A stretch of 64,000 nucleotides of DNA from assembly GCA_016861205.1 (NCBI GenBank), contig BOKX01000001.1, forward strand, positions 988,758 through 1,052,757, written 5' to 3'. Each line of letters begins with the position of its first letter. The stretch's first letter is position 1. Positions 46,322-60,131 of this stretch are shown piece by piece. Under the pieces are notes generated by a model that saw only the letters and a program-made list of their open reading frames with translations, was not told the origin of the DNA and searched no databases. Both the position numbers and the translations under genes were made by a program. The DNA is from Patescibacteria group bacterium (lineage in GTDB: Bacteria; Patescibacteriota; Microgenomatia; UBA1400; PJMF01).

Positions 46322-46906
46322 ATGAAAATTGGTTTATTCGGAGCTGCTTTTGATCCACCACATCTTGGTCATCAACATTTGATTGCTGAGTTATTGAAAG
46401 CCAACCTGGTTGATCAGGTATGGGTTGTGCCTGTCAAAAGTCACCCCTTTGCCAAACCTCTTAGCCCAGTCGAACACCGCTTGGCTATGGTGAAGCTGAT
46501 GCTCGCTGCTTTGCAGACAGAGGGCTGGGGCCCTGAGCAAGTACGTCTTGAGACGTATGAACTGGATCAACCCGGGGTAAGTTACTCGTACCAAACACTA
46601 CAGTACTTTGCAGGCGCTTATCCAGACCACACCTTTAGCTGGATCATAGGGGCTGATAACGTAGCCAATTTTGCCAAGTGGCATCACTACCAAGAATTAC
46701 TCGCTCAACATCAGGTGTTAATCTACCCACGACCAGGTTACAGCATGGAACCACTCTTGCCAGGCATGGTGCCACTGGACGCAGTGACGCCCATGGCGGC
46801 CTCATCAACAGAGGCTCGAAAAGTACTGGCTGAAGCAGCTAGCGACACGACGAAGCTTGTATTACCAGAGGTTGCCCAGTATAGTAAGCAGCATCAGCTC
46901 TATTGA
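46322..46906 (+). CDS. nadD: Nicotinate-nucleotide adenylyltransferase
   Basis: GLFGAAFDPPHLGH (HxGH nucleotidyltransferase motif), …WIIGADN… ISxDxR-like region. 194 aa. Confidence 0.85.
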   Translation: MKIGLFGAAFDPPHLGHQHLIAELLKANLVDQVWVVPVKSHPFAKPLSPVEHRLAMVKLMLAALQTEGWGPEQVRLETYELDQPGVSYSYQTLQYFAGAYPDHTFSWIIGADNVANFAKWHHYQELLAQHQVLIYPRPGYSMEPLLPGMVPLDAVTPMAASSTEARKVLAEAASDTTKLVLPEVAQYSKQHQLY

Positions 46907-46909
46907 GAC

Positions 46910-47722
46910 ATGGCACCCTTTATGACCCTTCACCTTTCCAGTCCCGATCAAACCCTCAACGCTTTAGTTGAGTTTATTCGCCACACTTTTGACACCCAAA
47001 AAAAACAGCTTGCAGTGGTTGCTGTTTCTGGTGGCATCGACTCAGCTCTAGCTCTGACCCTAGTGACGCGCGCGTTGGGTACAGCTCGAGTTCGACCACT
47101 TTTTTTGCCATACCAAAATCAGAGCACTGCCGATGCCGAGTTGATTTGCACTTGGAATCAAATACCGACGAGCCAATGGCAAGTGACTAACATTGAACCG
47201 ATCGTTCGCGCAGCGGCTGGCGCAGTTGGACTTGATCTGGAAGCCGGCGACGGACAGCCGATAGCCATGGAGCAAGTTAGGGTTGGCAACCTGATGGCTC
47301 GTGCCCGAATGATGGTGGTTTTTGACGTGGCCAAAAAATGGGATGCCCTGGTTTGCGGCACTGAAAACAAGTCAGAGCATTACTTGGGTTACTTCACTCG
47401 GTTTGGTGATGCAGCCTCAGATTTAGAACCCATTAGCACCCTCTACAAGACGCAGGTTCGCCAGTTAGCGACACATCTTGGTTTACCGGAGCAGTTGATC
47501 ACGAAACCGCCCTCAGCTGGTTTGTGGCAGCATCAAACAGATGAAGACGAGTTGGGTTTCACTTATGAACAAGCTGATCAGGTTTTGCAACAAGTGATCG
47601 ATGAAGGGACGCTGTCAGCTCCCAAGGTGGTGCCGGGCATAGATCCCGACATCCAAGCCAAAGTGATTGGCCAAGTTAAGTCATCTGCTTTTAAGCGGGT
47701 GGTGCCGTATGTGCTAGAGTAA
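46910..47722 (+). CDS. nadE: NH3-dependent NAD+ synthetase
   Basis: PP-loop SGGIDS, about 270 aa, adjacent to nadD. Confidence 0.85.
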   Translation: MAPFMTLHLSSPDQTLNALVEFIRHTFDTQKKQLAVVAVSGGIDSALALTLVTRALGTARVRPLFLPYQNQSTADAELICTWNQIPTSQWQVTNIEPIVRAAAGAVGLDLEAGDGQPIAMEQVRVGNLMARARMMVVFDVAKKWDALVCGTENKSEHYLGYFTRFGDAASDLEPISTLYKTQVRQLATHLGLPEQLITKPPSAGLWQHQTDEDELGFTYEQADQVLQQVIDEGTLSAPKVVPGIDPDIQAKVIGQVKSSAFKRVVPYVLE

Positions 47723-47747
47723 AGCAAGAGAGTACGAAGAAAGTTCC

Positions 47748-48365
47748 ATGACACCCGCACCGTTGCACTCACAAATCGTGACCGAGTTTACCGAGCTTGC
47801 ACCACTGGTGGAGCGTTTTCGCCAAGCAGGCCAGCGCATTGTGCTGACCCAAGGCGTTTTTGACCTGGTTCATATTGGTCATGCCCGCTATTGCCAAGTC
47901 GCAAAGCAGTTTGGTGATGTACTGATTGTGGGCGTGGACAGTGATGAGAAAGTGCGCACTCGCAAAGGGCCGGACCGACCGGTCGTTCCCCAAGCAGAAC
48001 GGATGGAGATGGTGGCTCATCTGGCGGCAGTTGATGTGGTAGTGCTCAAACAGCTAGACGAGCCAAAGTGGAAACTAATCAAGACGGTCAAACCGGATGT
48101 CTTAGTGGCGACCCAGGATACCTACACACCTGAGCAAGTGGCGGAGTTGCAGAAAATCTGTGGTCGAGTGGTGGTGTTGGAGCCCATGGCCACCACCAGT
48201 ACCAGTGCTAAGTTGCGCCGTCTGCAGATCGGCGCTGCCCAAAAAATTTCTGATCAACTGAGTCAAAAACTGATTGAAACCATCGAAAATGTGTTAGCCG
48301 AGTTGAAAGGGGAACGACCACATGTCCGCAAGACCCGCCGACCGCGCGCCAAAGCCAAACGGTAA
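47748..48365 (+). CDS. Cytidylyltransferase-like nucleotidyltransferase (RfaE domain II/HldE-adenylyltransferase-like) with a basic C-terminal tail
   Basis: VLTQGVFDLVHIGHARYCQVAKQFGDVLIVGVDSDEKVRTRKGPDRPVVPQAERMEMVAHLAAVDVVV matches the (T/H)xGH…GVNSDxSV…RP…ER core of this family. Confidence 0.55.
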   Translation: MTPAPLHSQIVTEFTELAPLVERFRQAGQRIVLTQGVFDLVHIGHARYCQVAKQFGDVLIVGVDSDEKVRTRKGPDRPVVPQAERMEMVAHLAAVDVVVLKQLDEPKWKLIKTVKPDVLVATQDTYTPEQVAELQKICGRVVVLEPMATTSTSAKLRRLQIGAAQKISDQLSQKLIETIENVLAELKGERPHVRKTRRPRAKAKR

Positions 48366-49206
48366 AACTATCTTGATTGCGTACGTGCCGGTGGTTCACA
48401 CGGGGTACTTAGAGTGGTTTGCCCGGTTTCCTGAGGTTACGGAACTGTGGCTGTTGGGCCGGGAGTTGATTCCCGAGTACAGAGCGTTACTCAAAGATCT
48501 GCGGGCCATCGAACCAACTGCCATGGTGTCTCTGTTACACAGTTTACAACGCTTTTCGAACATCCAAGTGGCCACGCCGGCAGACTTAACCCAACTGGCT
48601 GCCAGTGGGTATCATGTGATTGCCCCAGACGAGGATATTTCCAGACAAGTTATCTTGCAGTACTTCTCGCCCGACCAAGTCACGTTTGACACGGTTTTCT
48701 TGCGCTGGGAAGCAGTGCGAACCACGGTCGCTCACGAATTAGAACCAGACGTTGAGGTGTCCGAAGCCGAGTTTGATCGCCAGATGATGCAGGCGGCGCG
48801 CGATGCCGCTCAGCACAGCTCAGACTGGTGGCGACAAGTAGGTGCGGCTTTGGTGATTGGTGAAGAGCTGAAGCTGGTGGTGCGTAATCGTCACTTGCCT
48901 CAGGACCTGCAGCACTACAGCGATGGCGATCCGCGGGCTCTGTTCCAAAGCGGCGAACAGATTGAGTTCACAAGTTCCATTCATGCCGAGGCGGAGTTGA
49001 TTGCTCAAGTAGCCAAACAAGGTCTCAAAATTGAGGGAGCGAGTGTGTACTGTACCACTTTTCCTTGTCCGGTTTGTGCCAAGTTGCTGGCTCGGGCGGG
49101 GATAGCCAAACTGTACTACAGTGATGGCTATAGCTTGCTGGATGGTGAAAATGTGCTCAAGAATGCCGGGGTGCAAGTAGTGAAAGTAGTTAGCACTCCA
49201 AAGTAG
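48322..49206 (+). CDS. dCMP/CMP deaminase (zinc-dependent) fused to an uncharacterised N-terminal domain of about 150 aa
   Basis: C-terminal HAEAELI…CTTFPCPVCAKLL is the cytidine/deoxycytidylate deaminase H(A)E…PCxxC zinc site. The N-terminal half has no recognised motif. The start overlaps the preceding gene by about 44 nt, so it may be later. Confidence 0.7.
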   Translation: MSARPADRAPKPNGKTILIAYVPVVHTGYLEWFARFPEVTELWLLGRELIPEYRALLKDLRAIEPTAMVSLLHSLQRFSNIQVATPADLTQLAASGYHVIAPDEDISRQVILQYFSPDQVTFDTVFLRWEAVRTTVAHELEPDVEVSEAEFDRQMMQAARDAAQHSSDWWRQVGAALVIGEELKLVVRNRHLPQDLQHYSDGDPRALFQSGEQIEFTSSIHAEAELIAQVAKQGLKIEGASVYCTTFPCPVCAKLLARAGIAKLYYSDGYSLLDGENVLKNAGVQVVKVVSTPK

Positions 49207-49235
49207 GTGCGCAACTCGCCAACCAAGCCGGGGAT

Positions 49236-49700
49236 TTACTTCCGATTTTTGCCAAGTTTGACGCGGACCGGTTCAAAATCAGGGTCAGTGATTTCTGGCA
49301 CAATGAGTTGAGCGTGCAGGTGTGCCACTGTCCCAGCCGAAAACTGAGTGTCACCAAACCGCAGCGACAAGCCACCGCCGGGGAGGTCATAGCGCTCAGC
49401 CACTTGCCGAAGTAACTCAAACAACTCACCACCCATCTCAGTTGTTACCTCAGAGATGTGGGTAAGGTGCGCTTTGGAAATAATCATGAATTGGTGCCGA
49501 GTATGTTTGTATGGCCATTGGTTGGTAGTGACGAGCCAGTGTTTTCCCTCAAGCAAAGTGGGCTGATGATGATACTTGGCCAGATTCTCCAAGCAAAACG
49601 GGCACTCGCCGGCGGCCACAATCTCGGTCATGACCGCGTGTTGCTCGGGCAAGCGAGTGTTATCGATATCGACGAGTTGTGTGGATTTGGTTGGTGACAT
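49236..49700 (-). CDS. HIT-family protein (nucleotide hydrolase/transferase)
   Basis: Histidine triad …VAHLHAQLIV… (HxHxHxx) near the C-terminus. 154 aa. Confidence 0.65.
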   Translation of the reverse strand: MSPTKSTQLVDIDNTRLPEQHAVMTEIVAAGECPFCLENLAKYHHQPTLLEGKHWLVTTNQWPYKHTRHQFMIISKAHLTHISEVTTEMGGELFELLRQVAERYDLPGGGLSLRFGDTQFSAGTVAHLHAQLIVPEITDPDFEPVRVKLGKNRK

Positions 49701-49706
49701 GTTGGT

Positions 49707-50675
49707 TTAGATCGCCACGGGAATGGCGCGAATTCCTGGGTGTGGGTGATAGTCATGGAGCTCAAAATCATCGTAGCGAAAGGCGAACAAATCTTTTTTG
49801 GTCGGATCTTTGATGGTGACGGTGGGCAGCGGTCGCGGCTCGCGGCTGAGCATGGTTTGAACAGCTTCCACTTGGTCTACATAAATGTGGGCATCTGAGA
49901 AACTGTGAATGTACTCATCTGGTTCGAGTCCGGTTACCTGGGCGATCATCAACAGTAAGGCAGCATACTGGACCATGTTGGCTGGTACCCCTACCGGCAC
50001 ATCAGCCGAGCGTTGCATCATGTGGAGGGTCAGTTTGCCATCCAGCACGCGCAAGTGAATCCAGCCGTGGCAGGGAGCCACGACCACTTTTTGCTGTTTG
50101 CCCGTGCCGCGAATGGTGTACTGCGGAATCCAAGGGGTGATGTAGTGAGTTCGCAGGTGGGGGAACTCTTTAATCTGTTCAACGATGTTTTGAAATTGGT
50201 TGTAGGTGGGACCTTCGGTGGTGGGGAAGTCGTGGAAGGCGGCCCCATACGAGCCTGGACCCAGGTCGCCAGTCTCCAAACCCCGTTTGCGACACTTGGC
50301 TTCCGTGCCCCAAGGCGCCCACCAGTAGCAGCCAAAATTTTCCAGCTGTTCCAAAGTGCGCGCGCCGTTGATAAAACCACAAATCTCACCAATGGCTTGA
50401 TGCCAAATAGTCACGGGCAACCGCTCAGAGGTGGCGGGACTCATGTTGCGCTCGGTAATCATCGGGAATGCTTCACGGACCTTAAATCGCATTGGAGGTG
50501 GCGCCATCAGCGTAATCGCATCAGTTTCTTGTTGAGTCTGGGTTCGGTGACCATAGTCCAAGATAGTTTGCAGCACTTGTCGGTACTGGCCTTCGGGAGC
50601 GGTGTCAAAGTTGGCGTACCCGCTGGGCGAAGTTGTTTTAGTAGTGGGTTGGGTGGTTTTGTCGGAGTGGATCAT
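49707..50675 (-). CDS. thyA: Thymidylate synthase (ThyA family) with an N-terminal extension of about 30 aa
   Basis: Catalytic Cys in APCHGW. MQRSADVPVGVPANMVQYAALLLMIA (cf. [21 protein letters not shown]). C-terminal LSREPRPLPTV…YDDFELHDYHPHPGIRAIPVAI matches the E. coli ThyA C-terminus nearly residue-for-residue. Confidence 0.85.
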   Translation of the reverse strand: MIHSDKTTQPTTKTTSPSGYANFDTAPEGQYRQVLQTILDYGHRTQTQQETDAITLMAPPPMRFKVREAFPMITERNMSPATSERLPVTIWHQAIGEICGFINGARTLEQLENFGCYWWAPWGTEAKCRKRGLETGDLGPGSYGAAFHDFPTTEGPTYNQFQNIVEQIKEFPHLRTHYITPWIPQYTIRGTGKQQKVVVAPCHGWIHLRVLDGKLTLHMMQRSADVPVGVPANMVQYAALLLMIAQVTGLEPDEYIHSFSDAHIYVDQVEAVQTMLSREPRPLPTVTIKDPTKKDLFAFRYDDFELHDYHPHPGIRAIPVAI

Positions 50676-50722
50676 AAGCGTTCTAGTGTTATCTCGGTTC
50701 TCATGCTACTCTAACAACCGAC

Positions 50723-51151
50723 ATGTCACAAGTCAAAATCAAACAGTTCGACCCAAGTTTGCCATTTCCGGCGTATCAGTCACCTCGAGCAGCGGCGTTT
50801 GACTTGGTAGCGCGAGTCTCAGTTGAGATTAAACCTGGCCAGGTCGAACGAGTGCCATTGAATGTAGCTATTCAAGTCCCACCCAACCACTGGGTGCTCT
50901 TGGCAGCCCGCAGTTCACTCTACAAAAAGGGCCTGACTATGATCAACGGGATTGGGATTGGCGATGAAGATTTTGCGGGTAACGATGACGAGTACCAGGC
51001 AGCTTTGCAAAACTTTACAACTGAACCGGTGACGGTTCAAAAAGGCGACAGAATTGCCCAAGCCATTATTTTACCTCGAGAACAAATGGAGCTAGTGGCT
51101 GTGTCACAGCTTGACCAACCCAATCGAGGTGGGTTTGGGAGCACGGGGTGA
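50723..51151 (+). CDS. dut: dUTP pyrophosphatase
   Basis: 142 aa with dUTPase motifs (…AAFDLVA…, …RSSL…GL…, …GDRIAQ…, C-terminal …RGGFGSTG). Confidence 0.85.
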   Translation: MSQVKIKQFDPSLPFPAYQSPRAAAFDLVARVSVEIKPGQVERVPLNVAIQVPPNHWVLLAARSSLYKKGLTMINGIGIGDEDFAGNDDEYQAALQNFTTEPVTVQKGDRIAQAIILPREQMELVAVSQLDQPNRGGFGSTG

Positions 51152-51675
51152 GTATGAACTGTTTTTTAATTGCCGCGGTGACGGCTGATGGCTTTATCGC
51201 TCGACATCCTGACGATCGGTCGTTTGACTGGACCAGCTTGGAAGACAAAAAGTTTTATGTGGACATGATTAAGCAGGCGGGGACCGTGGTGATGGGTCGC
51301 CAGACTTTTGGCACATTCACTCGCTACCCCAAAGGGCTGCAGTTTGTGATTTATACGCGCGAGCCAGCTAGTTTCCAAAACCCGAAGCCCGAGGTGATTG
51401 ACGCTTGGGCCACCCAACAAAGTCCAGCCGAACTGTTGGCCGACCTAGCCAAAAAAGGTTGTACAAATGTGGCTATTTGTGGCGGATCATCAATCTATAC
51501 TATGTTTATGAAAAGTGGACTGGTAACCAAGTTGTACCTGACCGTAGAGCCAGTTCTGTTCGGGCAGGGAGTAAGCTTATTTTCAGACAGTTTGGATCAG
51601 AACTTACAGTTGGTAGAGGTGAAAAAACTCTCCGACCAGACCATCGTCTTAGAGTACGATGTGCTGAAAGCTTAG
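51148..51675 (+). CDS. folA: Dihydrofolate reductase
   Basis: NCFLIAAVTADGFIAR…TVVMGRQTFG…ICGGSSIYTMFM…KLYLT aligns with DHFR beta-alpha-beta motifs. Start overlaps the dut stop (ATGA). Confidence 0.7.
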   Translation: MSMNCFLIAAVTADGFIARHPDDRSFDWTSLEDKKFYVDMIKQAGTVVMGRQTFGTFTRYPKGLQFVIYTREPASFQNPKPEVIDAWATQQSPAELLADLAKKGCTNVAICGGSSIYTMFMKSGLVTKLYLTVEPVLFGQGVSLFSDSLDQNLQLVEVKKLSDQTIVLEYDVLKA

Positions 51676-51698
51676 CGACAGAGACGGCTACTAGCGAG

Positions 51699-52343
51699 TT
51701 ACCGACTGCTGGAAGATTTGCGCCAGTCGCCGGTGGTGAATCGGTTTTTGCCTTTGACGTGCCAGTCGTTGGGATTGGACTCTTGAATGGCGTAAAAGAA
51801 CTCGCGGGCGGTTTCAGTGTACAGTTTGGTTTGGGCCACGTATTGGCGGCCGTCAAACGTGTCTTCGCCGAGACGAACTCCTCGGAACTCTTGTTCCTTC
51901 AACTCCAAGTCCACGTCCAGGGTGTCTGCGTCTTTGACGATCTTGGCTTCGATGGAGTCGCGTTCTTCATACTCTTTCCAGATAGCCATGAACTCCTCAC
52001 GCACAGCTGTTTCATGGAGAGTATCTTCCAAAGCTTCTTCTTCAAATCGTTCCACGTATTGGCGCGAGATATAGTGGGAGTCAACTGAGCGACTTTCTGA
52101 CAAGTCATGAATGAGTGCCATCTTGATGATTTTTTCAGTATTTTTAACCCCTTCATACCGGGCCAAAACTAAAGAAATCCAGATCACACGCAGAATGTGC
52201 TCACTCAAATTTTGAAAATCAGGATTCAAAAATTGTTTCCAAGTCCGCTGAATATGCCGCAAGCAGCCGATTTCGTACAAGAACTCGAGGTCACGAGCCA
52301 TGTCAAAGTCGGGAAGTGAAGGGGCAGAAGTTGTACTCATCAT
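51699..52343 (-). CDS. HD-domain 5'-deoxynucleotidase (YfbR-like)
   Basis: …NLSEHILRVIWISLVLA…MALIHDLSES… matches the YfbR H…HD…D metal-binding pattern. 214 aa. Confidence 0.6.
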   Translation of the reverse strand: MMSTTSAPSLPDFDMARDLEFLYEIGCLRHIQRTWKQFLNPDFQNLSEHILRVIWISLVLARYEGVKNTEKIIKMALIHDLSESRSVDSHYISRQYVERFEEEALEDTLHETAVREEFMAIWKEYEERDSIEAKIVKDADTLDVDLELKEQEFRGVRLGEDTFDGRQYVAQTKLYTETAREFFYAIQESNPNDWHVKGKNRFTTGDWRKSSSSR

Positions 52344-52459
52344 AACTATATTATACTGCTACAGCCATTTTAAAGCCAGTTGGCCCGCGAAAACACCACA
52401 TCTTGTTGAGCCTATAGTTGCCAACCACAACATCTGGGGTTCTGAGCTAGTTTGTCATA

Positions 52460-54121
52460 TTGCAGGCGAGTCCAATTCTGCGTAACCTGTCACCTTATAG
52501 CCAACAGATAAATAAAAGATGTGTAAGTATGGTTGCCGTTAAAGAAGTAAAACCACCAGTTTATGAAGGTTCAGGGTTAAAACTCATCAACCCCCTAGAC
52601 TTAACCGACGCAGGAGGCGTGTCGCCAAAATCACATCATGTTGAGATTAAACCCCGAGACCTAAAGTTTAGGCCAGATGGATTTCTTGATTTGCCAGATC
52701 ATAATGATCGAGAATTCTGGGGGGACTATCCACCCAGTTTTATTTTAATCACCTCGGGTAGCTATCGCAAAACGTTGATGTTGCTGTTGTTGCATCATGG
52801 CTTAACTTTTCCAGCTATGACCGAGAGACAGCAGAAAATCAATCGCGATCGAGCGCCTGTAAAACGGCGCAAATCTAAATCACGCTACGTACCTGAGAAT
52901 CGAACAGCCGCAGAATCACCAGATAGCTACGCCCAGTATATCTCTCGGTACATTTCCAACGGTAACAGTGAACGCAAGCAAGGCATGCAGTTGCTGGGAT
53001 ACTTGCACGGGGTACCAATTTTATCGGCTCCCCAGATCGGTGAGACAGATAAAAACGACGACCCAGTCCGGGAAGCCAATAACAAGATCTGGTTTTGGAA
53101 AGAAGTCCTGGAGGGGCAGAACGGGATTCTGATTTCAACCGATACTGTTGACGGCCCAGATAGCACGTATGAAAAGCTAGGGAAACCGGCTAACCGCATT
53201 GATTACCCTCGGTCAGATAGTCTTGATGAAGAGGAGTACGCAAAAATTTTGGATCACTACCAATACTGGTTCTTTGATGTTCGCCATGAACATACGGCGG
53301 ATTACTTGTTAGCTATGCCGAAAGTAACTGGTTTCCGCGATGAGGAAGAACTCAAGATCGCTCGGGAGGCTTACCTGCGGTTATACCTAGCGCGTTTTTA
53401 TCCTCCAGGTACCGAGATCGAGCACACAAATGGCTTGGCCATCTATGACACGTTGGTATCTGGTCGAGTTCTTCAGGATACCCATCTGGATTTTTTTGCT
53501 GACACGGAAAGTGGCCGAGTATGGGGTGATTGGCAGATTACCCAAATGTTTTTCAAAATATTGGAAAGTCACAACTTAAAACCTGACCCTGAATCTGGTG
53601 GTGGCGGCATGAGCCAGCAGACAGTGGACTTTGAACAAGGCAAGATCTACGAAGAGCTACTCGCTTGGGCAGCGACTCTTGATCCGGAAAATGCAGCTTT
53701 AGCTCAGAGCTTGGTCCAAGCAGCAGAATCTGGATTGACAGTGGCCTATGATTACTACCTGAGTCTTGGTGACACGATTGCTCAGGAGGCTTGGAAAGAC
53801 CTATCGCTCAATCAACTGCGCTGGGCAGTGTACTGTCAGATCGCTGGGATGCCATGGGCAGTGTTTGTAAACGCGTTAGGACATCTTAAGTACAGTGCGC
53901 AGCGGGCCGAGGTGGTCGAACAGCTGAAGCGAGAGGCATTAGATCGTGAAATAACTATTCGAGCCGCACGTGCTGGCGAAGTTGATCAAGAAGTATCTCA
54001 CGCCAACACACCAGGGCTACTATTCGGAAAAAAATTACTGTCTCCGCCTCAAATTCCCAAACGACCACAACCAGTCCCAATCCCAGCTGATGTGGCATCG
54101 TTAGCAGCCGTCGGTGACTAA
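52460..54121 (+). CDS. Hypothetical protein (553 aa; TTG start in the track, with an alternative ATG at 52529)
   Basis: Long ORF embedded in the dTTP-metabolism cluster; no motif recognised. Confidence 0.5.
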   Translation: MQASPILRNLSPYSQQINKRCVSMVAVKEVKPPVYEGSGLKLINPLDLTDAGGVSPKSHHVEIKPRDLKFRPDGFLDLPDHNDREFWGDYPPSFILITSGSYRKTLMLLLLHHGLTFPAMTERQQKINRDRAPVKRRKSKSRYVPENRTAAESPDSYAQYISRYISNGNSERKQGMQLLGYLHGVPILSAPQIGETDKNDDPVREANNKIWFWKEVLEGQNGILISTDTVDGPDSTYEKLGKPANRIDYPRSDSLDEEEYAKILDHYQYWFFDVRHEHTADYLLAMPKVTGFRDEEELKIAREAYLRLYLARFYPPGTEIEHTNGLAIYDTLVSGRVLQDTHLDFFADTESGRVWGDWQITQMFFKILESHNLKPDPESGGGGMSQQTVDFEQGKIYEELLAWAATLDPENAALAQSLVQAAESGLTVAYDYYLSLGDTIAQEAWKDLSLNQLRWAVYCQIAGMPWAVFVNALGHLKYSAQRAEVVEQLKREALDREITIRAARAGEVDQEVSHANTPGLLFGKKLLSPPQIPKRPQPVPIPADVASLAAVGD

Positions 54122-54220
54122 GAGACAAAAAGTAGTCTTGACCTCAATGGGGGGTTTGCTATGCTCAAGTTTGCTTGCCCGGCTTATTTAGATACGTTTG
54201 TTTTCTGAACCGAGGCATCT

Positions 54221-54994
54221 ATGGCTCTGCAACCTGACTACCTTCGCCACTCTACACCCACCAACCTTGCCCAGCCTGATGTCCTACCCACCGGTTTTTA
54301 CGCCGCCGTGGTTGGCCCCACTGGTAGTGGCAAAAGCCAACTCATCAATGTTCTGGAAGCGGGTGGGTATCCAGTCAAGCGTGAGGTGCCGCCCGCCGAA
54401 AATCCTTACTTAGCTGATTTTTATGACCAAATGGCCACTCGAAAACCAGACCAATCATTGGAAGTAGCCCTGCTGTCGCAGTTGTGTTTCTTAGAAGCCT
54501 CGCTTGCACAAAGTGCGCAGATCAAAGACCGAGTAGCGCATGGTGAAACAGTGTTCCATGAAATGCCTTGGTATGGCCACGAGATGTATGCGTATTTGCT
54601 CTGGCAAAGTGGAGTTCTGGATGACGAGATGTGGAATTTGTACCGGGCAACCGTCGCACAGCAGTTGCCAAACCTCATAGTGCCTGAAGTGACCCTTGTG
54701 GTGGTGCCACCGACGATTGAGCATCTACATGGCCAAATTCTGGGGCGCGCCAGGGAGGATGAATCAAGACAGAAAGAAGCCCAGGTCGATGTGCGTTACT
54801 GGGCATCACAATTGAGATATTGGCAAGCTAAGTTGATTCAGAACCAACGCCCATACGGCTCACCACTTTATCCGATGCGACCAGATAAACACAACTGGCT
54901 CACTGAGGCAGGTGCACACTCGGCATTGGCTGAGTGTCGGCAGGTGTTGATGGGAATTGGCCGGTCAAAATCAACCGGTCGACACTGGCAGTAG
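54221..54994 (+). CDS. Deoxynucleoside kinase family protein
   Basis: P-loop VVGPTGSGKS, then the dNK-family segment …REVPPAENPYLADFYDQ… (cf. EPVxxW…LLxxFYxDPxRW) and an ERS-like region. 257 aa. Confidence 0.6.
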   Translation: MALQPDYLRHSTPTNLAQPDVLPTGFYAAVVGPTGSGKSQLINVLEAGGYPVKREVPPAENPYLADFYDQMATRKPDQSLEVALLSQLCFLEASLAQSAQIKDRVAHGETVFHEMPWYGHEMYAYLLWQSGVLDDEMWNLYRATVAQQLPNLIVPEVTLVVVPPTIEHLHGQILGRAREDESRQKEAQVDVRYWASQLRYWQAKLIQNQRPYGSPLYPMRPDKHNWLTEAGAHSALAECRQVLMGIGRSKSTGRHWQ

Positions 54995-55054
54995 GTTTAC
55001 GAAGCTTTAAAAAAGTAGTGTAAGATGAAATCAACAATTCATCGGAAAGTTGTC

Positions 55055-55684
55055 ATGGCAAAAAAAGGACTGTTAATTACATTCGAAGGTGGTGAGGGCT
55101 GCGGCAAAAGTACCCAGATTGTGCAGTTGCGTGATGTTCTGACCAAAGCCGGTCAAGATGTGGTGGTGCTGCGTGAGCCAGGTGGGACGGTGATTTCAGA
55201 GCAAATTCGCGAAGTTGTGTTATCGAGCAAAAATATTGGTATTGCGTTTACTACCGAAGTATTGCTGTTTCAAGCTGCTCGGGCCCAGATTTATCGAGAA
55301 ATTGTGCTGCCTTCACTCGAGGCTGGCAAAGTGGTGCTGATGGACCGATCACGCGACAGTTCGGTGGTGTATCAGGGTAAGGTGCGTGGTTTTGGTGTAG
55401 AGCTCATTGAACAGCTGAACAACTTGTCGACCAAAGACACTTTTCCTGATCTGACCATTTTGCTTGATGTTCCTGTGGAAATTGGCTTGAGCCGTCGTAG
55501 CAAAACTGGCAAGATGGATCGTCTTGACATGGAAGCCCAAGACTTTCATCAAAAAGTTCGAGATGCTTACCTGGCATTGGCCAAAGCCAATGACCGGAAA
55601 CGTTGGCTGGTGATCGATGCTACGCTGAGTATTGAAGCAGTCGCAGAAGCAGTGACCAAGGCCGTCCTCAAGCACATTAAGTGA
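55055..55684 (+). CDS. tmk: Thymidylate kinase
   Basis: LITFEGGEGCGKSTQ P-loop, DRxxxSSxxYQG (DRSRDSSVVYQG) and LID region. Start taken at MAKKGLL…. Confidence 0.9.
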   Translation: MAKKGLLITFEGGEGCGKSTQIVQLRDVLTKAGQDVVVLREPGGTVISEQIREVVLSSKNIGIAFTTEVLLFQAARAQIYREIVLPSLEAGKVVLMDRSRDSSVVYQGKVRGFGVELIEQLNNLSTKDTFPDLTILLDVPVEIGLSRRSKTGKMDRLDMEAQDFHQKVRDAYLALAKANDRKRWLVIDATLSIEAVAEAVTKAVLKHIK

Positions 55685-55760
55685 GGGCAGCGTATAAACC
55701 AAAAAATAGCTCGTCTGGTCGACACAATTTGACCTGATGTGGTAAGCTGAGAACACGTCT

Positions 55761-57683
55761 ATGATAATTGAAGGCACTAACCCCGGTTCTGGTGAACAAC
55801 ATCAGAGTGTTGGCGAGAGAATGGCAAAAATTCGTCAAAACCTTCTGCGCAAGGGCCACAACAAAGATGAGATTCGCGCAAAAATGAACGATGCAGTAGC
55901 CCGCAAAGAAGCAGAAGAAAACCAGAGAGAGCGGGAGCACAAGATGCTGGCAAGAGCTGAACATCAAGGTAAAGTTCTGAGTAATCTTGACAGTAGTTTG
56001 TGGAATCTGGTGGAGACTTTTTCTGAACAACAGCCAGAAGCAATTCGGTTAGCTGAACAGGCTACCTTAAGTGCCTTATCGCAAGTAGCTGAGCAACTGG
56101 ACAGTCTTGACCCAGATTCTGGTGATGGCAGTCTGTACGTTGAACAAATCTGGCAAAAGTTGTCAAAACTGGCTCGGACCATTAATATTCCCAAAGAGTC
56201 ACCAGTTACCAAAATGTTGAACCGTTTATCTATTAAAGCTGCCTTTGCGCACGAGCGCGTGATGGCGGCCGTTCAACCTGACTACGATTTGTTGCAAGAG
56301 GACTTCAACAAAGCATTAGCCAACCTGGAAGATAGACCCAAGTTATTAATTAACAACTTGGATTTTGCTTTTGCAGTTGGGCGAATGGCGGCCCTTATTG
56401 ATAGTCTGGATGCAGCTAACAACCGGGAGTTTCTGGAAAAACGCGGCGAGGACCTGGAAAAAATTATTAAAGAACTTCGACCTGAGGTAATCAACCGACA
56501 ATTTGATGACGAGGGTCGAGTGACCAAAACAATTTGGGGTCCCAATCGATATTCGGACACATTTGTCTTTCTGCCGTTGGCTGAGCTTGATGACGTGATT
56601 GCCCGCAAACTGGGACAAGTATCAACCGCCCGACATTTGCCTAGTGTTCACGACAGATACCAGTTAGGTGCTGAAGTTCCGCCATATCAAGGAGAAGCCG
56701 ATTCGCCAAGACCCACAAAGGATAACCCTCTCAATTTGCGGCAGAGCGGGCAAGCTCCAGACCTGACTGACATGATATCTGGCCAGTACAAGCATTACCT
56801 TGAGAAATGGGCTGAGCATCGAGCAGAGGAACTTGTAAAAATAGCGGGAACACCAGCTCAGCGAGCTGAGAGAGACAAAAAAGAACGAACGGCACTTGGG
56901 GCGCCGAGAGAGTTGCCTGAAAACATGGTTATCAAGGGGGGCGAATGGGGCTTAGGTAGTGCTGCTGATCGAATCCAACAAATCAAAAACGAAGCTGATG
57001 CGCGCTATGGTCAAGCGAGAACCGAGTGGTATCGTGAGCTGAGTGCGGCAAGAAAGCAATCACCTCCCGACACTGAGACGATGAAGAGATTACAACGACA
57101 AATTGATGTCTCTCGGGCTCAAGAAGCTGCCGAGGTTATGGCCGAGATCAGTAAATTGAAGCAAGAAGCGGGCCTTCCTCAGCTAGAGGCAGCACTAAGA
57201 AACTCCAGATTGCCACAGTTTTTGCGAGAACTAGTCTTGGGTGATCCACAAAAAGGCGAAGAACCACTTGAGATCAAGTTCAAAGCGGGTGGAGGAACAA
57301 ATTGGGATATACAGCATCTGTTACATCAAGTCCAAAGTCAGGACCCAATGGACTATGAATCAGCCAAAAATCCATTGCCGAGAGTCAATGTTCGGGTTCA
57401 CAATGTATCTGAAACACCAAAAAGAGTCTTCCGAGGTGAAGCGAAGCCTGTTCGCCCAGTTGAGTCTATTGAAGGTCCCACGGACGAGGCTACACAAGTT
57501 GAGCAAGGTATGGCCATTATTAGAGCTCTTTTAGAGCAAGGTAGTGTGGAGAATAGTGAAACACCTACTCTGGGTGGTGGTCTGATTATTGACGATATAG
57601 ATCTAGGCGCCTTGAACCTCGATGAGATCGATTTTGGAGATCCTGGATCGCTTGCGGGGTTTGATTTTGAAGATATTGCCTAG
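55761..57683 (+). CDS. Hypothetical protein (640 aa), helical/coiled-coil-rich, with an acidic C-terminal D-[IL]-D repeat tail
   Basis: Long ORF with the C-terminus …LIIDDIDLGALNLDEIDFGDPGSLAGFDFEDIA. No family recognised. Confidence 0.5.
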   Translation: MIIEGTNPGSGEQHQSVGERMAKIRQNLLRKGHNKDEIRAKMNDAVARKEAEENQREREHKMLARAEHQGKVLSNLDSSLWNLVETFSEQQPEAIRLAEQATLSALSQVAEQLDSLDPDSGDGSLYVEQIWQKLSKLARTINIPKESPVTKMLNRLSIKAAFAHERVMAAVQPDYDLLQEDFNKALANLEDRPKLLINNLDFAFAVGRMAALIDSLDAANNREFLEKRGEDLEKIIKELRPEVINRQFDDEGRVTKTIWGPNRYSDTFVFLPLAELDDVIARKLGQVSTARHLPSVHDRYQLGAEVPPYQGEADSPRPTKDNPLNLRQSGQAPDLTDMISGQYKHYLEKWAEHRAEELVKIAGTPAQRAERDKKERTALGAPRELPENMVIKGGEWGLGSAADRIQQIKNEADARYGQARTEWYRELSAARKQSPPDTETMKRLQRQIDVSRAQEAAEVMAEISKLKQEAGLPQLEAALRNSRLPQFLRELVLGDPQKGEEPLEIKFKAGGGTNWDIQHLLHQVQSQDPMDYESAKNPLPRVNVRVHNVSETPKRVFRGEAKPVRPVESIEGPTDEATQVEQGMAIIRALLEQGSVENSETPTLGGGLIIDDIDLGALNLDEIDFGDPGSLAGFDFEDIA

Positions 57684-57722
57684 GGTGGCACAAGATACGT
57701 TTCGATAGTATAGTACTCCAAT

Positions 57723-58340
57723 ATGGCAGCCAAACTTCCTCGGGCCGTGTCCCGATTGATCGAGCAGTTTGAACGTTTACCAGGTGTGGGTCCCAAGTCT
57801 GCCCAAAGACTGGTCTTTTACTTGTTGCACAACCCAGAACACCAACTCCAAGAGTTTGCTGATCGGTTAGTGGCGCTCAAGCGTGAGACCGTGCTGTGCA
57901 GTCGTTGTCACAACGTCAGTGAAACTGATCCGTGTAGTATTTGTGATGACACCAGCCGAGATGAAGCCCAGCTGTGTGTGGTGGAACAACCTCTTGATCT
58001 GTTAGCGATTGAGCGATCAGAGCGGTTTACTGGCCGCTATCATGTGTTGCACGGTGCGATTTCGCCGCTTAATCATATTGGGCCAGACCAATTATTTCTG
58101 CACGATATTTTGAAACGTTTAGAACCAGTCGAGGAGCTGATCATTGCCACCAATCCCACCATGGAAGGGGAGTCAACAGCCCTCTACATCACTGAGCTGA
58201 TCAAGCAATCGCTACCGCCTGAACAAGCGGCTTCATTGAAAATTACCCGGATTGGTCACGGTTTACCGATCGGAGCTGACATTGAGTACGCCGATGGCGT
58301 GACGTTAGCTCGCGCTCTCGAGGGGCGTCGGCAGATGTAA
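57723..58340 (+). CDS. recR: Recombination protein RecR
   Basis: HhH (RLPGVGPKSAQRL), C4 zinc finger (CSRCHN…CSIC), Toprim domain. 205 aa. Confidence 0.9.
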   Translation: MAAKLPRAVSRLIEQFERLPGVGPKSAQRLVFYLLHNPEHQLQEFADRLVALKRETVLCSRCHNVSETDPCSICDDTSRDEAQLCVVEQPLDLLAIERSERFTGRYHVLHGAISPLNHIGPDQLFLHDILKRLEPVEELIIATNPTMEGESTALYITELIKQSLPPEQAASLKITRIGHGLPIGADIEYADGVTLARALEGRRQM

Positions 58341-58457
58341 AAGCGGACCCTCAAAAAGGTCGAGTTTTAGCCACTTTGTACTACTCTGTAACCTTGCTGT
58401 TTTGGCTTTTCTTTGCTAGTATGAACAGTGTCATGCAGATGTTGCTGACAAGAGGTG

Positions 58458-58496
58458 CCCTGGGTCCAGCTCGATGAGTTGGCTAGGGTTTTTTTG
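58458..58496 (+). terminator. Intrinsic terminator-like hairpin with a 7-T run, between recR and hpf
   Basis: ccctgg-gt-ccagctc-gat-gagttgg-ctaggg (interrupted 13-bp stem), then ttttttt. Confidence 0.5.
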
Positions 58497-58552
58497 TACT
58501 AACAGGTTCTAATTAGCCTCTCGTTAGAGCCCAAGGGAAGAAAGGAGCCTCG

Positions 58553-58936
58553 ATGCAAATCCTGGTTCAGTCCAAAACCTTGAGTATTACTGCCGCGCTG
58601 CGGGCGTTCATCGAACGCCAAGCACGCAAACTCAGTCGCCGGGGCGAACGCGTCCAAGCGGTGACCGTGTTTGTGGAAACCGTCGGCAAAAAGAAGAACG
58701 ATGTCCAGTCGGCCATCGCCAAGATGAAGGTGAGTCTGCCCGGTCGCGACCTGATGGTCGAGCGCCGAGCGCAAGACCTCTACGAAGCCGTCATCGACGT
58801 GACTGCCCGGGCTGCCCGGCAAATTCGCAAAACGAAAGAGCGTCGTATCCAGTTTAAACGCAGTTGGCGTTTACCCAGTTCCCAAGGGATTTGGGAAGAC
58901 AGATTAGCTGAAGTCCGCGAGCCAGCTCGCACCTAG
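58553..58936 (+). CDS. hpf: Ribosome hibernation-promoting factor / ribosome-associated inhibitor A (short HPF)
   Basis: MQILVQSKTLSITAALRAFIERQARKLSRRGERV…AVIDVTARAARQIRKTKERR follows the YfiA/HPF beta-alpha-beta-beta-beta-alpha pattern (NIxITGKNIEITPALREYVEKKL…RQLRKHKE). Confidence 0.7.
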   Translation: MQILVQSKTLSITAALRAFIERQARKLSRRGERVQAVTVFVETVGKKKNDVQSAIAKMKVSLPGRDLMVERRAQDLYEAVIDVTARAARQIRKTKERRIQFKRSWRLPSSQGIWEDRLAEVREPART

Positions 58937-58987
58937 TTGTCCAGACGACACTTGCAGAGTACCCCCGGGGCTTGCTATGGTTAGGTC

Positions 58988-59455
58988 ATGACCGATAGCA
59001 CCACCCCGGGGGGTGTTGGTTCTCCAGCTCCCGCACCGGTTTCCAGTGATCCAGCCAGCCAGCCGGCTCCAACCCCAGCTCCAACTCAACCAGCTGCTGC
59101 AGATAGTGCCAAAAAAAGCCCTCTCGATATCTTGGAAGAAATTTTGAATGAAACCCAAAATCAACAAGCCGGAGGCAAGGCGGCAGCTCCAGCTGCGGCT
59201 CCCGCTCCTGACCCAGCAGTTAGTGCTGAGGCTCAGGCTGCTGAACTAGCTCGCATTCAGGCTGAAAATGAGGCGCGCGCTGCGCGCGATCAAGCCGCTG
59301 CTCAAGCTAAGCTCGCTGACATCAAGGCTCAAACCAACTCGCCAGAGTACCAAGCCGCGGTTCAACAACAAACCTCCGAACAGCAAGCTCATGACCAGCA
59401 CACCCAAGCCCAAGAAGGATTTGAAATTGTTCAGCTGGGACACACTAAGCTGTAA
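58988..59455 (+). CDS. Hypothetical low-complexity protein (Ala/Pro/Gln-rich, 155 aa)
   Basis: ORF in GC-rich sequence; compositionally biased. Confidence 0.4.
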   Translation: MTDSTTPGGVGSPAPAPVSSDPASQPAPTPAPTQPAAADSAKKSPLDILEEILNETQNQQAGGKAAAPAAAPAPDPAVSAEAQAAELARIQAENEARAARDQAAAQAKLADIKAQTNSPEYQAAVQQQTSEQQAHDQHTQAQEGFEIVQLGHTKL

Positions 59456-59492: not shown

Positions 59493-60131
59493 ATGATTGG
59501 ACCCAAACCCGCTTTTCGACCGCGCCCTGGAGGGGGTTTTAACCCTGGTTTTGGGCAGATGAACGAACACTTGGATGAGTCGGCGGTTCAGGCAGCTTCA
59601 CAGCAAAAAGCCCTCCAGCAAACAGCTGGCTCAGTCTCAGCCAACCCACCTAGTGGCCCGGGTGCAGCCGCCCCAGGTGGCCTGCCAGCTGGTCCCAGTT
59701 CTGAACCCGTCAAACCCCGAGCCATGGGTAGCATTCCGGAAGAGCTGGTCGTGCGACCGGCCAAAGATATTGTCAAAGGACTGGCAAGTTTGTTTGATTT
59801 GAATGCCTGGCTCGGGATTCCTAAACAGGTTGACGACCCTCAAACTCAAGCCCGCAAGCAACAGATGCTGCAACGGTTCAATCGGCTGACCGATGAGCAG
59901 CAGGCTGAGGCGAAGCGTCGCTACGACTTGAATCTCAAGAAGAAGCAACAGGCTGAGCAGGAAAAGCAAGCTCGTGAACAGCAGCAGCGTCAGCAAGAAG
60001 CGCAAAGTTTGGAGATGCCAAGTAGTCCGCAAAAAGGCCCGGTTGGCCCAGGCAGCTCCAAGAAACAAAAAGCGGCCAATAAACTCCAGCAAGATCGCAA
60101 AACCTTGAGCGGGCCGTCGAGCGTAGGGTAG
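59493..60131 (+). CDS. Hypothetical low-complexity protein (Gln/Ala/Pro-rich, 212 aa)
   Basis: ORF with a Q/K/E-rich helical C-terminal half (…KKKQQAEQEKQAREQQQRQQEAQ…). Confidence 0.4.
   Translation: MIGPKPAFRPRPGGGFNPGFGQMNEHLDESAVQAASQQKALQQTAGSVSANPPSGPGAAAPGGLPAGPSSEPVKPRAMGSIPEELVVRPAKDIVKGLASLFDLNAWLGIPKQVDDPQTQARKQQMLQRFNRLTDEQQAEAKRRYDLNLKKKQQAEQEKQAREQQQRQQEAQSLEMPSSPQKGPVGPGSSKKQKAANKLQQDRKTLSGPSSVG

Follow-up and report, generated by a model that had tools for sequence, protein, structure and literature searches.

Known Systems and the Locus

In phage T4-type clusters, the enzymes that supply thymidylate are encoded side by side, i.e., a dCMP deaminase (cd), the thymidylate synthase ThyA (td), a dihydrofolate reductase (DHFR; frd), a (d)NTP pyrophosphatase (dCTPase/dUTPase), and a dTMP kinase (the dNMP kinase). 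We analyzed a stretch of 64,000 nucleotides (hereafter, the window) from contig BOKX01000001.1 of a Patescibacteria group bacterium, in which the same enzyme set is found between positions 47748 and 57683. This locus differs from the T4 type in that it is cellular, chromosomal, and phylum-wide, and in that it carries additional HIT-like and cytidylyltransferase-like (CT-like) genes. Its source is a bacterium of the Patescibacteria, also called candidate phyla radiation (CPR). The genomes of these bacteria are tiny, nucleotides are obtained by salvage and not by de novo synthesis, and the balance of the deoxynucleoside triphosphate (dNTP) pool is central to their biology and to their host dependence. 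We propose, with a probability of about three in four, that the region is a thymidylate (dTMP/dTTP) supply locus made of two old phylum-level modules and of recent local additions. The first module would be a divergent arrangement of two gene pairs kept across the phylum, with the CT-like gene followed by that of a two-domain deaminase on one strand, and thyA followed by the HIT-like gene on the other. The second would be folA-dut-X-tmk, where X encodes a 530-aa Maf-like protein.

A sequence-only reading of the window had listed 11 open reading frames (ORFs) here. Our ORF and Pfam check found all of them where it had placed them, and the Pfam identities agree for most:

47748-48365, plus strand: CT-like nucleotidyltransferase of the HldC/ECT/TagD type, 205 aa (Pfam CTP_transf_like, 75 bits)
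48322-49206, plus strand: two-domain deaminase, 294 aa (Pfam dCMP_cyt_deam_1, over aa 151-266 only)
49236-49700, minus strand: putative, divergent HIT-superfamily protein, 154 aa (CPFC zinc-type motif and the histidine-triad variant H-L-H-A-Q-L-I)
49707-50675, minus strand: thymidylate synthase ThyA, 322 aa (Pfam Thymidylat_synt, 214 bits)
50723-51151, plus strand: dUTPase (dut), 142 aa (Pfam dUTPase, 80 bits)
51148-51675, plus strand: DHFR-like reductase (folA), 175 aa (Pfam RibD_C, 63.6 bits; DHFR_1, 36.2 bits)
51699-52343, minus strand: HD-domain protein, YfbR-like 5'-deoxynucleotidase, 214 aa (Pfam HD_3, 79.7 bits; YfbR-like, 30.6 bits)
52529-54121 (listed ORF 52460-54121), plus strand: predicted divergent Maf/YhdE-like NTP pyrophosphatase, 530 aa (hhalign, motifs, and predicted structure)
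54221-54994, plus strand: divergent deoxynucleoside-kinase-like (dNK-like) P-loop kinase, 257 aa (Pfam dNK, 30.6 bits)
55025-55684, plus strand: thymidylate kinase, tmk (Pfam Thymidylate_kin, 148 bits)
55761-57683, plus strand: orphan protein between tmk and recR, 640 aa (no family match)

Several of these proteins can be set against described relatives. The Maf proteins (PF02545; B. subtilis Maf, 1ex2/4heb; E. coli YhdE) measure about 190 aa, against 530 aa for the window protein and 310-420 aa for most members of its family. The window protein has three insertions and a C-terminal extension, carries Lys81 in place of Arg13, is invisible to Pfam and NCBIfam (the Pfam gathering threshold is not reached), and belongs to a family with a fixed operon position, folA-dut-X-tmk. 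The dCMP deaminases (DCTD; T4 Cd, 1vq2; S. mutans, 2hvv; cyanophage S-TIM5, 4p9c) are single-domain protomers of about 20 kDa assembled in homohexamers, whereas the window enzyme is a two-domain protein of 294 aa, with a CT-fold N-terminal domain of about 135 aa (the N-domain), a degenerate allosteric motif, and an S-x-D-W-W-R motif of its own. In ECT (3elb/4xsv), tandem CT domains form a pseudo-dimer, while the two CT-fold units of the window lie on separate, apparently translationally coupled polypeptides, the second being fused to the deaminase. As for the anti-phage dCTP deaminases (NF041025; PADLOC dCTPase), their likeness to the window enzyme is that of a catalytic core of about 70 aa, and they differ from it in the N-domain, the housekeeping context, and the near-universal distribution in the phylum. 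A literature search for such a module in CPR bacteria found nothing relevant. The novelty lies in variants of known folds, i.e., an unrecognized Maf subfamily, a dCMP deaminase with a CT-fold domain, and CT-like and HIT-like partners that accompany it closely; every fold identified is already known and the system itself is not of a new kind.

A Core Conserved across the Phylum

A scan of one genome per species yielded at least 554 relatives carrying the fused deaminase, and the synteny counts given here come from tblastn comparisons of the window proteins with the best 80 of these loci, which belong to metagenome-assembled genomes (MAGs) of Patescibacteria of many classes. The CT-like gene is directly 5' of the deaminase gene in all 80 loci. 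Just 3' of the deaminase gene, on the opposite strand, are the HIT-like gene (75/80) and thyA (73/80). This deaminase/thyA core often has dut and folA as neighbors (matched in 45 and 43 loci, respectively), while tmk was matched in 18 loci, the 530-aa Maf-like protein in eight, the HD gene in six, and neither the dNK-like gene nor the 640-aa protein in any. The genes are not together by chance, for the same core order is met with across the phylum. The super-cluster of dTTP synthesis and salvage described by the sequence-only reading holds for this core, but with the dNK-like, HD, and 640-aa genes it is in part a recent local accretion. That reading did not bring out that, of all the partners of the deaminase and thyA, the CT-like and HIT-like genes are conserved most tightly.

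In the window, the deaminase gene starts inside the CT-like gene, with an overlap of 44 nt. Among the 61 loci in which both motifs could be located, the CT-like stop codon falls 10-57 nt before the first conserved deaminase motif in 58. At such a distance, the deaminase start must abut or overlap that stop, which points to a phylum-wide translational coupling of the two genes. The CT-like protein has its HIGH and ATTSTSAKIR motifs intact in the window and conserved in 69 orthologues, and it belongs with the CT family (PF01467), having both the Pfam match and the HxGH and ISTT-type motifs of this family. It scores 124 bits, under the cut-off, against NCBIfam rfaE_dom_II, and its nearest PDB entries are ECT (3elb, 1.4e-17) and HldC (5x9q). 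Directly upstream of the CT-like gene and of the ammonia-releasing deaminase are nadD and nadE (NH3-dependent NAD synthetase family; 46322-47722), a placement also seen in about 10-16 syntenic loci. In a distant relative (L090:2203-3933), a Fic-domain gene, a LemA gene, and small ORFs stand between the CT-like/deaminase pair and folA, and PIN-domain genes are inserted near recR; such insertions show that conserved modules tolerate mobile or toxin-type genes.

The HIT label given to the third gene is weak for the window copy, which reaches 14.9 bits (E=0.04) against a Pfam HIT cut-off of 21.5 and finds weak GalT/HIT matches in the PDB by phmmer (E 0.03-1). It seems to hold at the family level, as judged from the alignment: the CxxC and H-phi-H motifs are invariant in 89 orthologues, with H (52), Q (26), or N (11) at the third position, and seven of eight sampled orthologues match Pfam HIT or DcpS_C near the threshold. 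ThyA keeps the catalytic Cys motif PCHGW and the Asn of GVPANM, which we take to mark the dUMP-specific type, i.e., a thymidylate synthase as opposed to a dCMP hydroxymethylase. The folA gene starts with GTG, overlaps dut by 4 nt, and its product scores weakly against the DHFR families of NCBIfam. The two genes overlap or abut in the window and in L006, and an extra segment of about 400 nt with two minus-strand ORFs (35 and 73 aa) separates dut from folA in other strain-level relatives, namely in L004 (4976-5376) and also in L005 and L007.

All homologues of the deaminase, and all related loci, come from Patescibacteria MAGs or from unnamed metagenome contigs. About 2000 full-length homologues of 270-320 aa were found, and the named ones are called 'deaminase' and come from Patescibacteria. 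The lineage of the window is not in the species collection, where the top match is 45-51% identical; in the Logan assemblies, the organism of the window is itself present, together with a strain-level relative whose genes stand in identical order. The genes that flank the cluster are unremarkable cellular ones: dprA, topA, nadD, and nadE precede it, and recR, hpf, and cysS follow it. A promoter and terminator scan of 46-59 kb gave counts not above those of shuffled sequence, so that operon boundaries are read from strand and spacing only, and Rfam and tRNA scans had no match in the cluster region.

A Maf-Like Protein next to tmk

The eighth gene of the list had been described as a 553-aa unknown. 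It is indeed without a Pfam or NCBIfam family, and PADLOC and PHROGs have no match for it either, but its length has to be corrected: the ORF of 553 aa begins with TTG at 52460, while gene callers and homologues favor the ATG at 52529, which gives 530 aa. A word-indexed search with this protein returned three proteins only. A full hidden Markov model search reached 73 representative clusters, mostly of 310-420 aa; in the window protein, the stretches at about aa 88-150, 222-290, and 365-425 are insertions, and a tail is added at the C terminus. Maf is the top Pfam family among the members, yet for 4 of 62 only (best E 7e-4), and profile searches of the PDB with alignments of 3 and 62 sequences recovered no Maf. 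The identification came only from the predicted structure, motif analysis, and hhalign, the order of the motifs having first been spotted by eye.

The predicted structure has the alpha-beta fold of Maf/ITPase. By hhalign against B. subtilis Maf (E 0.0015; reference sequence verified as 1ex2), K186 is matched to the Maf Lys, D205 to the Asp in GADT, and K219 to the Lys in GKP, and in a relaxed alignment every Maf motif appears in order. The catalytic signature of Maf proteins is S-R-E-K-D-K (S10, R13, E33, K52, D70, and K82 in YhdE), to which the YhdE subfamily adds R-T-Q (R12, T71, and Q153) (PMC3899018, Tchigvintsev et al. 2013). The counterparts of the signature are S78 (62/62), K81 (60/62; the equivalent of R13, replaced by Lys in this family), E172 (61/62), K186 (62/62), D205 (62/62), and K219 (60/62), and those of R-T-Q are R80 (60/62), T206 (45/62), and Q363 (59/62). 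The equivalences of K186, D205, and K219 are those of hhalign, the other signature residues were placed with the relaxed alignment, and Q363 was placed by the relaxed alignment and motif order only. From the alignment and the structural model, we conclude that the 530-aa protein is a divergent, predicted Maf/YhdE-like NTP pyrophosphatase, enlarged by insertions, in which all catalytic signature residues have a counterpart.

The Maf-like gene adjoins tmk in every locus having it, independently found distant members included, so that the co-occurrence with tmk, suggested as a check for this gene, is borne out. The order is usually folA-dut-X-tmk, and it is kept between members only 22-32% identical. 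The gene is strongly constrained, with a ratio of nonsynonymous to synonymous substitutions (dN/dS) of 0.047, its composition is not foreign, and no canonical Maf is present in the window or in the fetched loci. The protein is most likely a pyrimidine (d)NTP pyrophosphatase working on the same pool. It would convert dTTP, dCTP, UTP, or modified forms of them to (d)NMP and pyrophosphate, and would thereby feed or trim the thymidylate pool.

CPR bacteria rely on salvage, and where nucleotides are recovered from degraded nucleic acids, modified ones would come in with the rest. The protein could, then, be a house-cleaning pyrophosphatase for such nucleotides or a modulator of cell division, with a position next to tmk that is inherited synteny without functional link. 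Canonical Maf proteins do prefer m5UTP, pseudo-UTP, and m5CTP, and they are implicated in division arrest (PMC3899018). This is a possibility to be kept in mind, though clearly the less probable one, for a purely inherited order would have persisted down to 22-32% identity. Moreover, the two roles are not mutually exclusive, YhdE acting on dTTP/UTP in vivo (PMC3899018). At least 73 clusters now annotated 'hypothetical' would be Maf-type pyrophosphatases of a tmk operon.

Where relatives do not have the Maf-like gene, its place between dut and tmk is taken by a helical protein of about 280-356 aa that is unrelated to it (L009:14476-15471, L012:7421-8275, L018:7217-8248, L044:7192-8241, L076:7116-8141, and L085:7156-8226). 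Several of these proteins show the motif 'E..E ... ELAD.L.F', which to the eye resembles that of MazG; Pfam gives no support for MazG, and hhalign finds no relation to the Maf-like family. If the MazG-like identity were true, one NTP pyrophosphatase would have been replaced by a non-homologous one.

A Two-Domain dCMP Deaminase with a Predicted Cytidylyltransferase Fold

The deaminase is predicted by AlphaFold2 (pLDDT 90.5) as two domains, the N-domain at aa ~15-148 (nt ~48364-48765) and a dCMP-deaminase domain at aa ~151-290. The predicted structure of the N-domain is a HUP/nucleotidyltransferase (cytidylyltransferase) fold, and the closest structural relatives of the C-terminal domain are dCMP deaminases. 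In the latter, the catalytic HAE and PCxxC motifs are conserved, with H221 in 105 of 106 sequences and E223, C249, and C252 in all 106. This domain thus looks like a catalytically intact dCMP deaminase, which would make dUMP for ThyA. Canonical dCMP deaminases bear the allosteric-site motif G(Y/W)N(A/G) (PMC12088426). In the window it is degenerate, V-R-N-R at 187-190, and in the family it reads [A/G][H/R/Y]N[R/H/Q]: position 187 is A (42) or G (27), position 188 H (35), R (26), or Y (22), N189 is invariant, and position 190 is R, H, or Q and A/G never the majority, the positional equivalence being our own reading of the alignment. The family has a specific S-x-D-W-W-R motif.

The sequence-only reading had set apart the first 150 aa of the protein as an extra module of its own, and rightly so: Pfam has no match for aa 1-150, and the N-domain has its own invariant residues. 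Twelve residues, including Y21, P23, H26, G28, Y29, K58, R61, and L127-R128-W129, do not vary among sequences that are 29-44% identical. HxGY replaces HxGH, Y29 being invariant, KDIRAL, PDED, and FLRWD are conserved, and no ISTT-type (second nucleotidyltransferase) motif is present. We tried the N-domain as a recognizable paralogue of the adjacent CT gene and rejected it, with an hhalign probability of 0.3% and nothing relevant from phmmer and profile searches of the PDB. The N-domain would bind a nucleotide, and it may be a sensor that replaces the degenerate G(Y/W)N(A/G) allosteric site. It may also, or instead, dock the translationally coupled CT-like protein.

The HxGH motif of nucleotidyltransferases binds NTP phosphates, and the fold puts the HxG[Y] of the N-domain at the very place where it does so, the start of the first helix. 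Together with the 12 invariant residues (H26, G28, Y29, K58, R61, R128, and W129 among them), this could be taken to mean that the N-domain is itself catalytic, e.g., a dCTP pyrophosphohydrolase or a nucleotidyltransferase handing dCMP to the deaminase domain. We consider this unlikely, as HxGH has another residue in place of its second His, an ISTT-type motif is missing, and no Pfam family matches; besides, degenerate CT domains, such as those of ECT, are known to be non-catalytic. The phylum has a dCMP deaminase with a nucleotidyltransferase-fold domain that is always coupled to CT-like and HIT-like genes. Both this enzyme and the Maf-like family offer targets for biochemistry and better annotation for thousands of MAGs.

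Local Additions and the 640-aa Orphan

The HD 5'-deoxynucleotidase and the dNK-like kinase appear to be additions made in the lineage of the window, and they would match the thymidylate theme. The closest outgroup locus (L008) has a copy of the HD gene that is 87% identical. It has no dNK-like gene, the Maf-like gene there abutting tmk, and the dNK-like kinase is, on this comparison, a lineage-specific addition. Its protein passes the Pfam dNK (PF01712) threshold marginally (30.6 vs 27 bits), finds the PDB dNK 8puu with an E of 0.15 only, and has no relatives on viral contigs.

The case of the 640-aa protein is different. Among 5.8 billion proteins, it finds itself and a single relative, 81% identical. 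Pfam, NCBIfam, PADLOC, PHROGs, and the PDB have no match for it, viral contigs have no relatives of it, and it shows neither internal repeats nor a paralogue within the window. The gene is nevertheless real, with a dN/dS of 0.15 at a dS of 0.70 and no stops, though less constrained and faster-evolving than its neighbors. The protein is hydrophilic, contains no cysteine, and shows no hydrophobic stretch when scanned in 40-aa windows. Its acidic tail with the D-[IL]-D repeat, pointed out by the sequence-only reading, is indeed there: the last 40 aa have a net charge of -10 and contain DDIDL, LDEIDF, and FDFEDIA, and the tail, acidic and hydrophobic, is conserved as ...F-[DN]-FEDIA. The gene lies on the same strand as its neighbors, 76 nt from tmk and 39 nt from recR, which are directly adjacent in most syntenic relatives; otherwise, the slot holds other genes.

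The same reading had put forward both large unknown genes as candidates for pathway components. This is upheld for the Maf-like gene, adjacent to tmk, but not for the 640-aa gene, which has no homologue other than the 81%-identical relative and whose junction is empty, or taken by other genes, elsewhere. It had also offered absence from this position in relatives, along with foreign composition, as signs of a random insertion, and the two do not agree here: the gene is in none of the 80 related loci, whereas a GC of 0.473 places it within the local range and its composition is not foreign. Its absence at this position indicates a lineage-specific insertion all the same. The best description of the 640-aa protein is that of a genus-level orphan, inserted between tmk and recR, and it is probably no part of the thymidylate pathway. 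Most likely, it is non-enzymatic, largely helical or disordered, and binds partners through its acidic tail.

Could this protein still be a factor linked to the pathway or to replication, e.g., an adaptor of recombination or of the replisome that works with RecR through an SSB-like acidic tail? The tight, same-strand spacing between tmk and recR and the purifying selection speak for it, and so does the ...F-[DN]-FEDIA tail, which may resemble acidic protein-docking tails. It is a doubtful proposal, however, given that no other lineage searched has a homologue, that tmk and recR touch each other in most syntenic relatives, and that the gene evolves faster than those around it.

The content of the tmk-recR slot varies among relatives (L012:5610-6629, L016:4988-6265, L076:5201-6292; L018:5068-6381, L044:5072-6373). 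Where it is not empty, it is occupied in some by proteins of 340-425 aa with HD-like H..HD.G motifs, for which Pfam HD gives an E of 0.17 only. In some others, it holds what appears by sequence to be the serine hydroxymethyltransferase GlyA, which, if true, would supply the third thymidylate-cycle enzyme. The 640-aa protein was compared by hhalign with the slot proteins and with the Maf-like family and rejected as a homologue of either, no relation being found. Further downstream, after hpf, two genes without a family (58988-59455, 155 aa; 59493-60131, 212 aa) are kept at 30-48% identity, in the order recR-hpf-u155-u212-cysS, in 7-10 syntenic Patescibacteria loci.

Weighing the Thymidylate Supply Reading

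Several points count against a thymidylate supply locus as we describe it. The CT-like and HIT-like genes have roles in thymidylate metabolism that find no explanation. The comparison of the N-domain with the neighboring CT-like family is not significant (hhalign probability of 0.3%), and, with its second nucleotidyltransferase motif missing, nucleotide binding by this domain is something that we infer. Finally, the 640-aa protein may hide an enzymatic fold.

A bolder proposal can be built on the same genes: the CT-like protein, the fused deaminase, the HIT-like protein, and ThyA would form an undescribed, Patescibacteria-specific thymidylate machine. An active CT-like protein would pair, as in ECT, with the degenerate CT domain of the fused enzyme into a pseudo-dimer, the CT-like and HIT-like proteins would process a cytidine nucleotide by way of a nucleotidylated intermediate (e.g., dCTP to dCMP-X to dCMP), and the product would be channeled to deamination and methylation, the Maf-like enzyme serving as a second entry from (d)NTP to (d)NMP. 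We regard this as speculative and improbable in its entirety.

The anti-phage interpretation, in which the fused deaminase is a nucleotide-depletion effector like the dCTP deaminase defense proteins and the cluster is a defense island, is very improbable and we reject it: the top NCBIfam match is indeed the 'anti-phage dCTP deaminase' NF041025 (79.9 bits, above ComEB at 49 bits) and PADLOC dCTPase reaches 83.7 bits, but these matches cover aa 209-280 and 213-282 only, about 70 residues of the catalytic core, the first falls far short of the cut-off, which is 400, the fold of the N-domain is that of a cytidylyltransferase and not that of the kinase-like domain that anti-phage dCTP deaminases carry, no other gene of the region matches PADLOC significantly, and the fusion occurs in at least 554 species-level genomes, with housekeeping neighbors (thyA, HIT-like, and CT-like genes among them) in all 80 loci sampled. 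The preference of the sequence-only reading for metabolism over defense, argued from the same dTMP/dTTP context, is supported.

Observations on Records and Strains

Many public records with the Patescibacteria-type locus (L009, L010, L016, L025, and L037, among others) are titled 'uncultured Pseudomonadales', 'Gammaproteobacteria', or 'Bdellovibrionales', and the taxonomy labels of these MAG records appear to be wrong.

Between the window (46322-59455) and its strain-level relatives L004 and L006, synonymous divergence is a mosaic. Most genes have a dS of 0-0.1. It is 0.47-0.95 for tmk, the 640-aa gene, and recR, and reaches 1.17 for the Maf-like gene in the comparison with L006 alone; thyA, folA, or the HIT-like gene show 0.24-0.35 with one of the two relatives or with the other. 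Such a mosaic suggests that strains living side by side often exchange DNA by homologous recombination.

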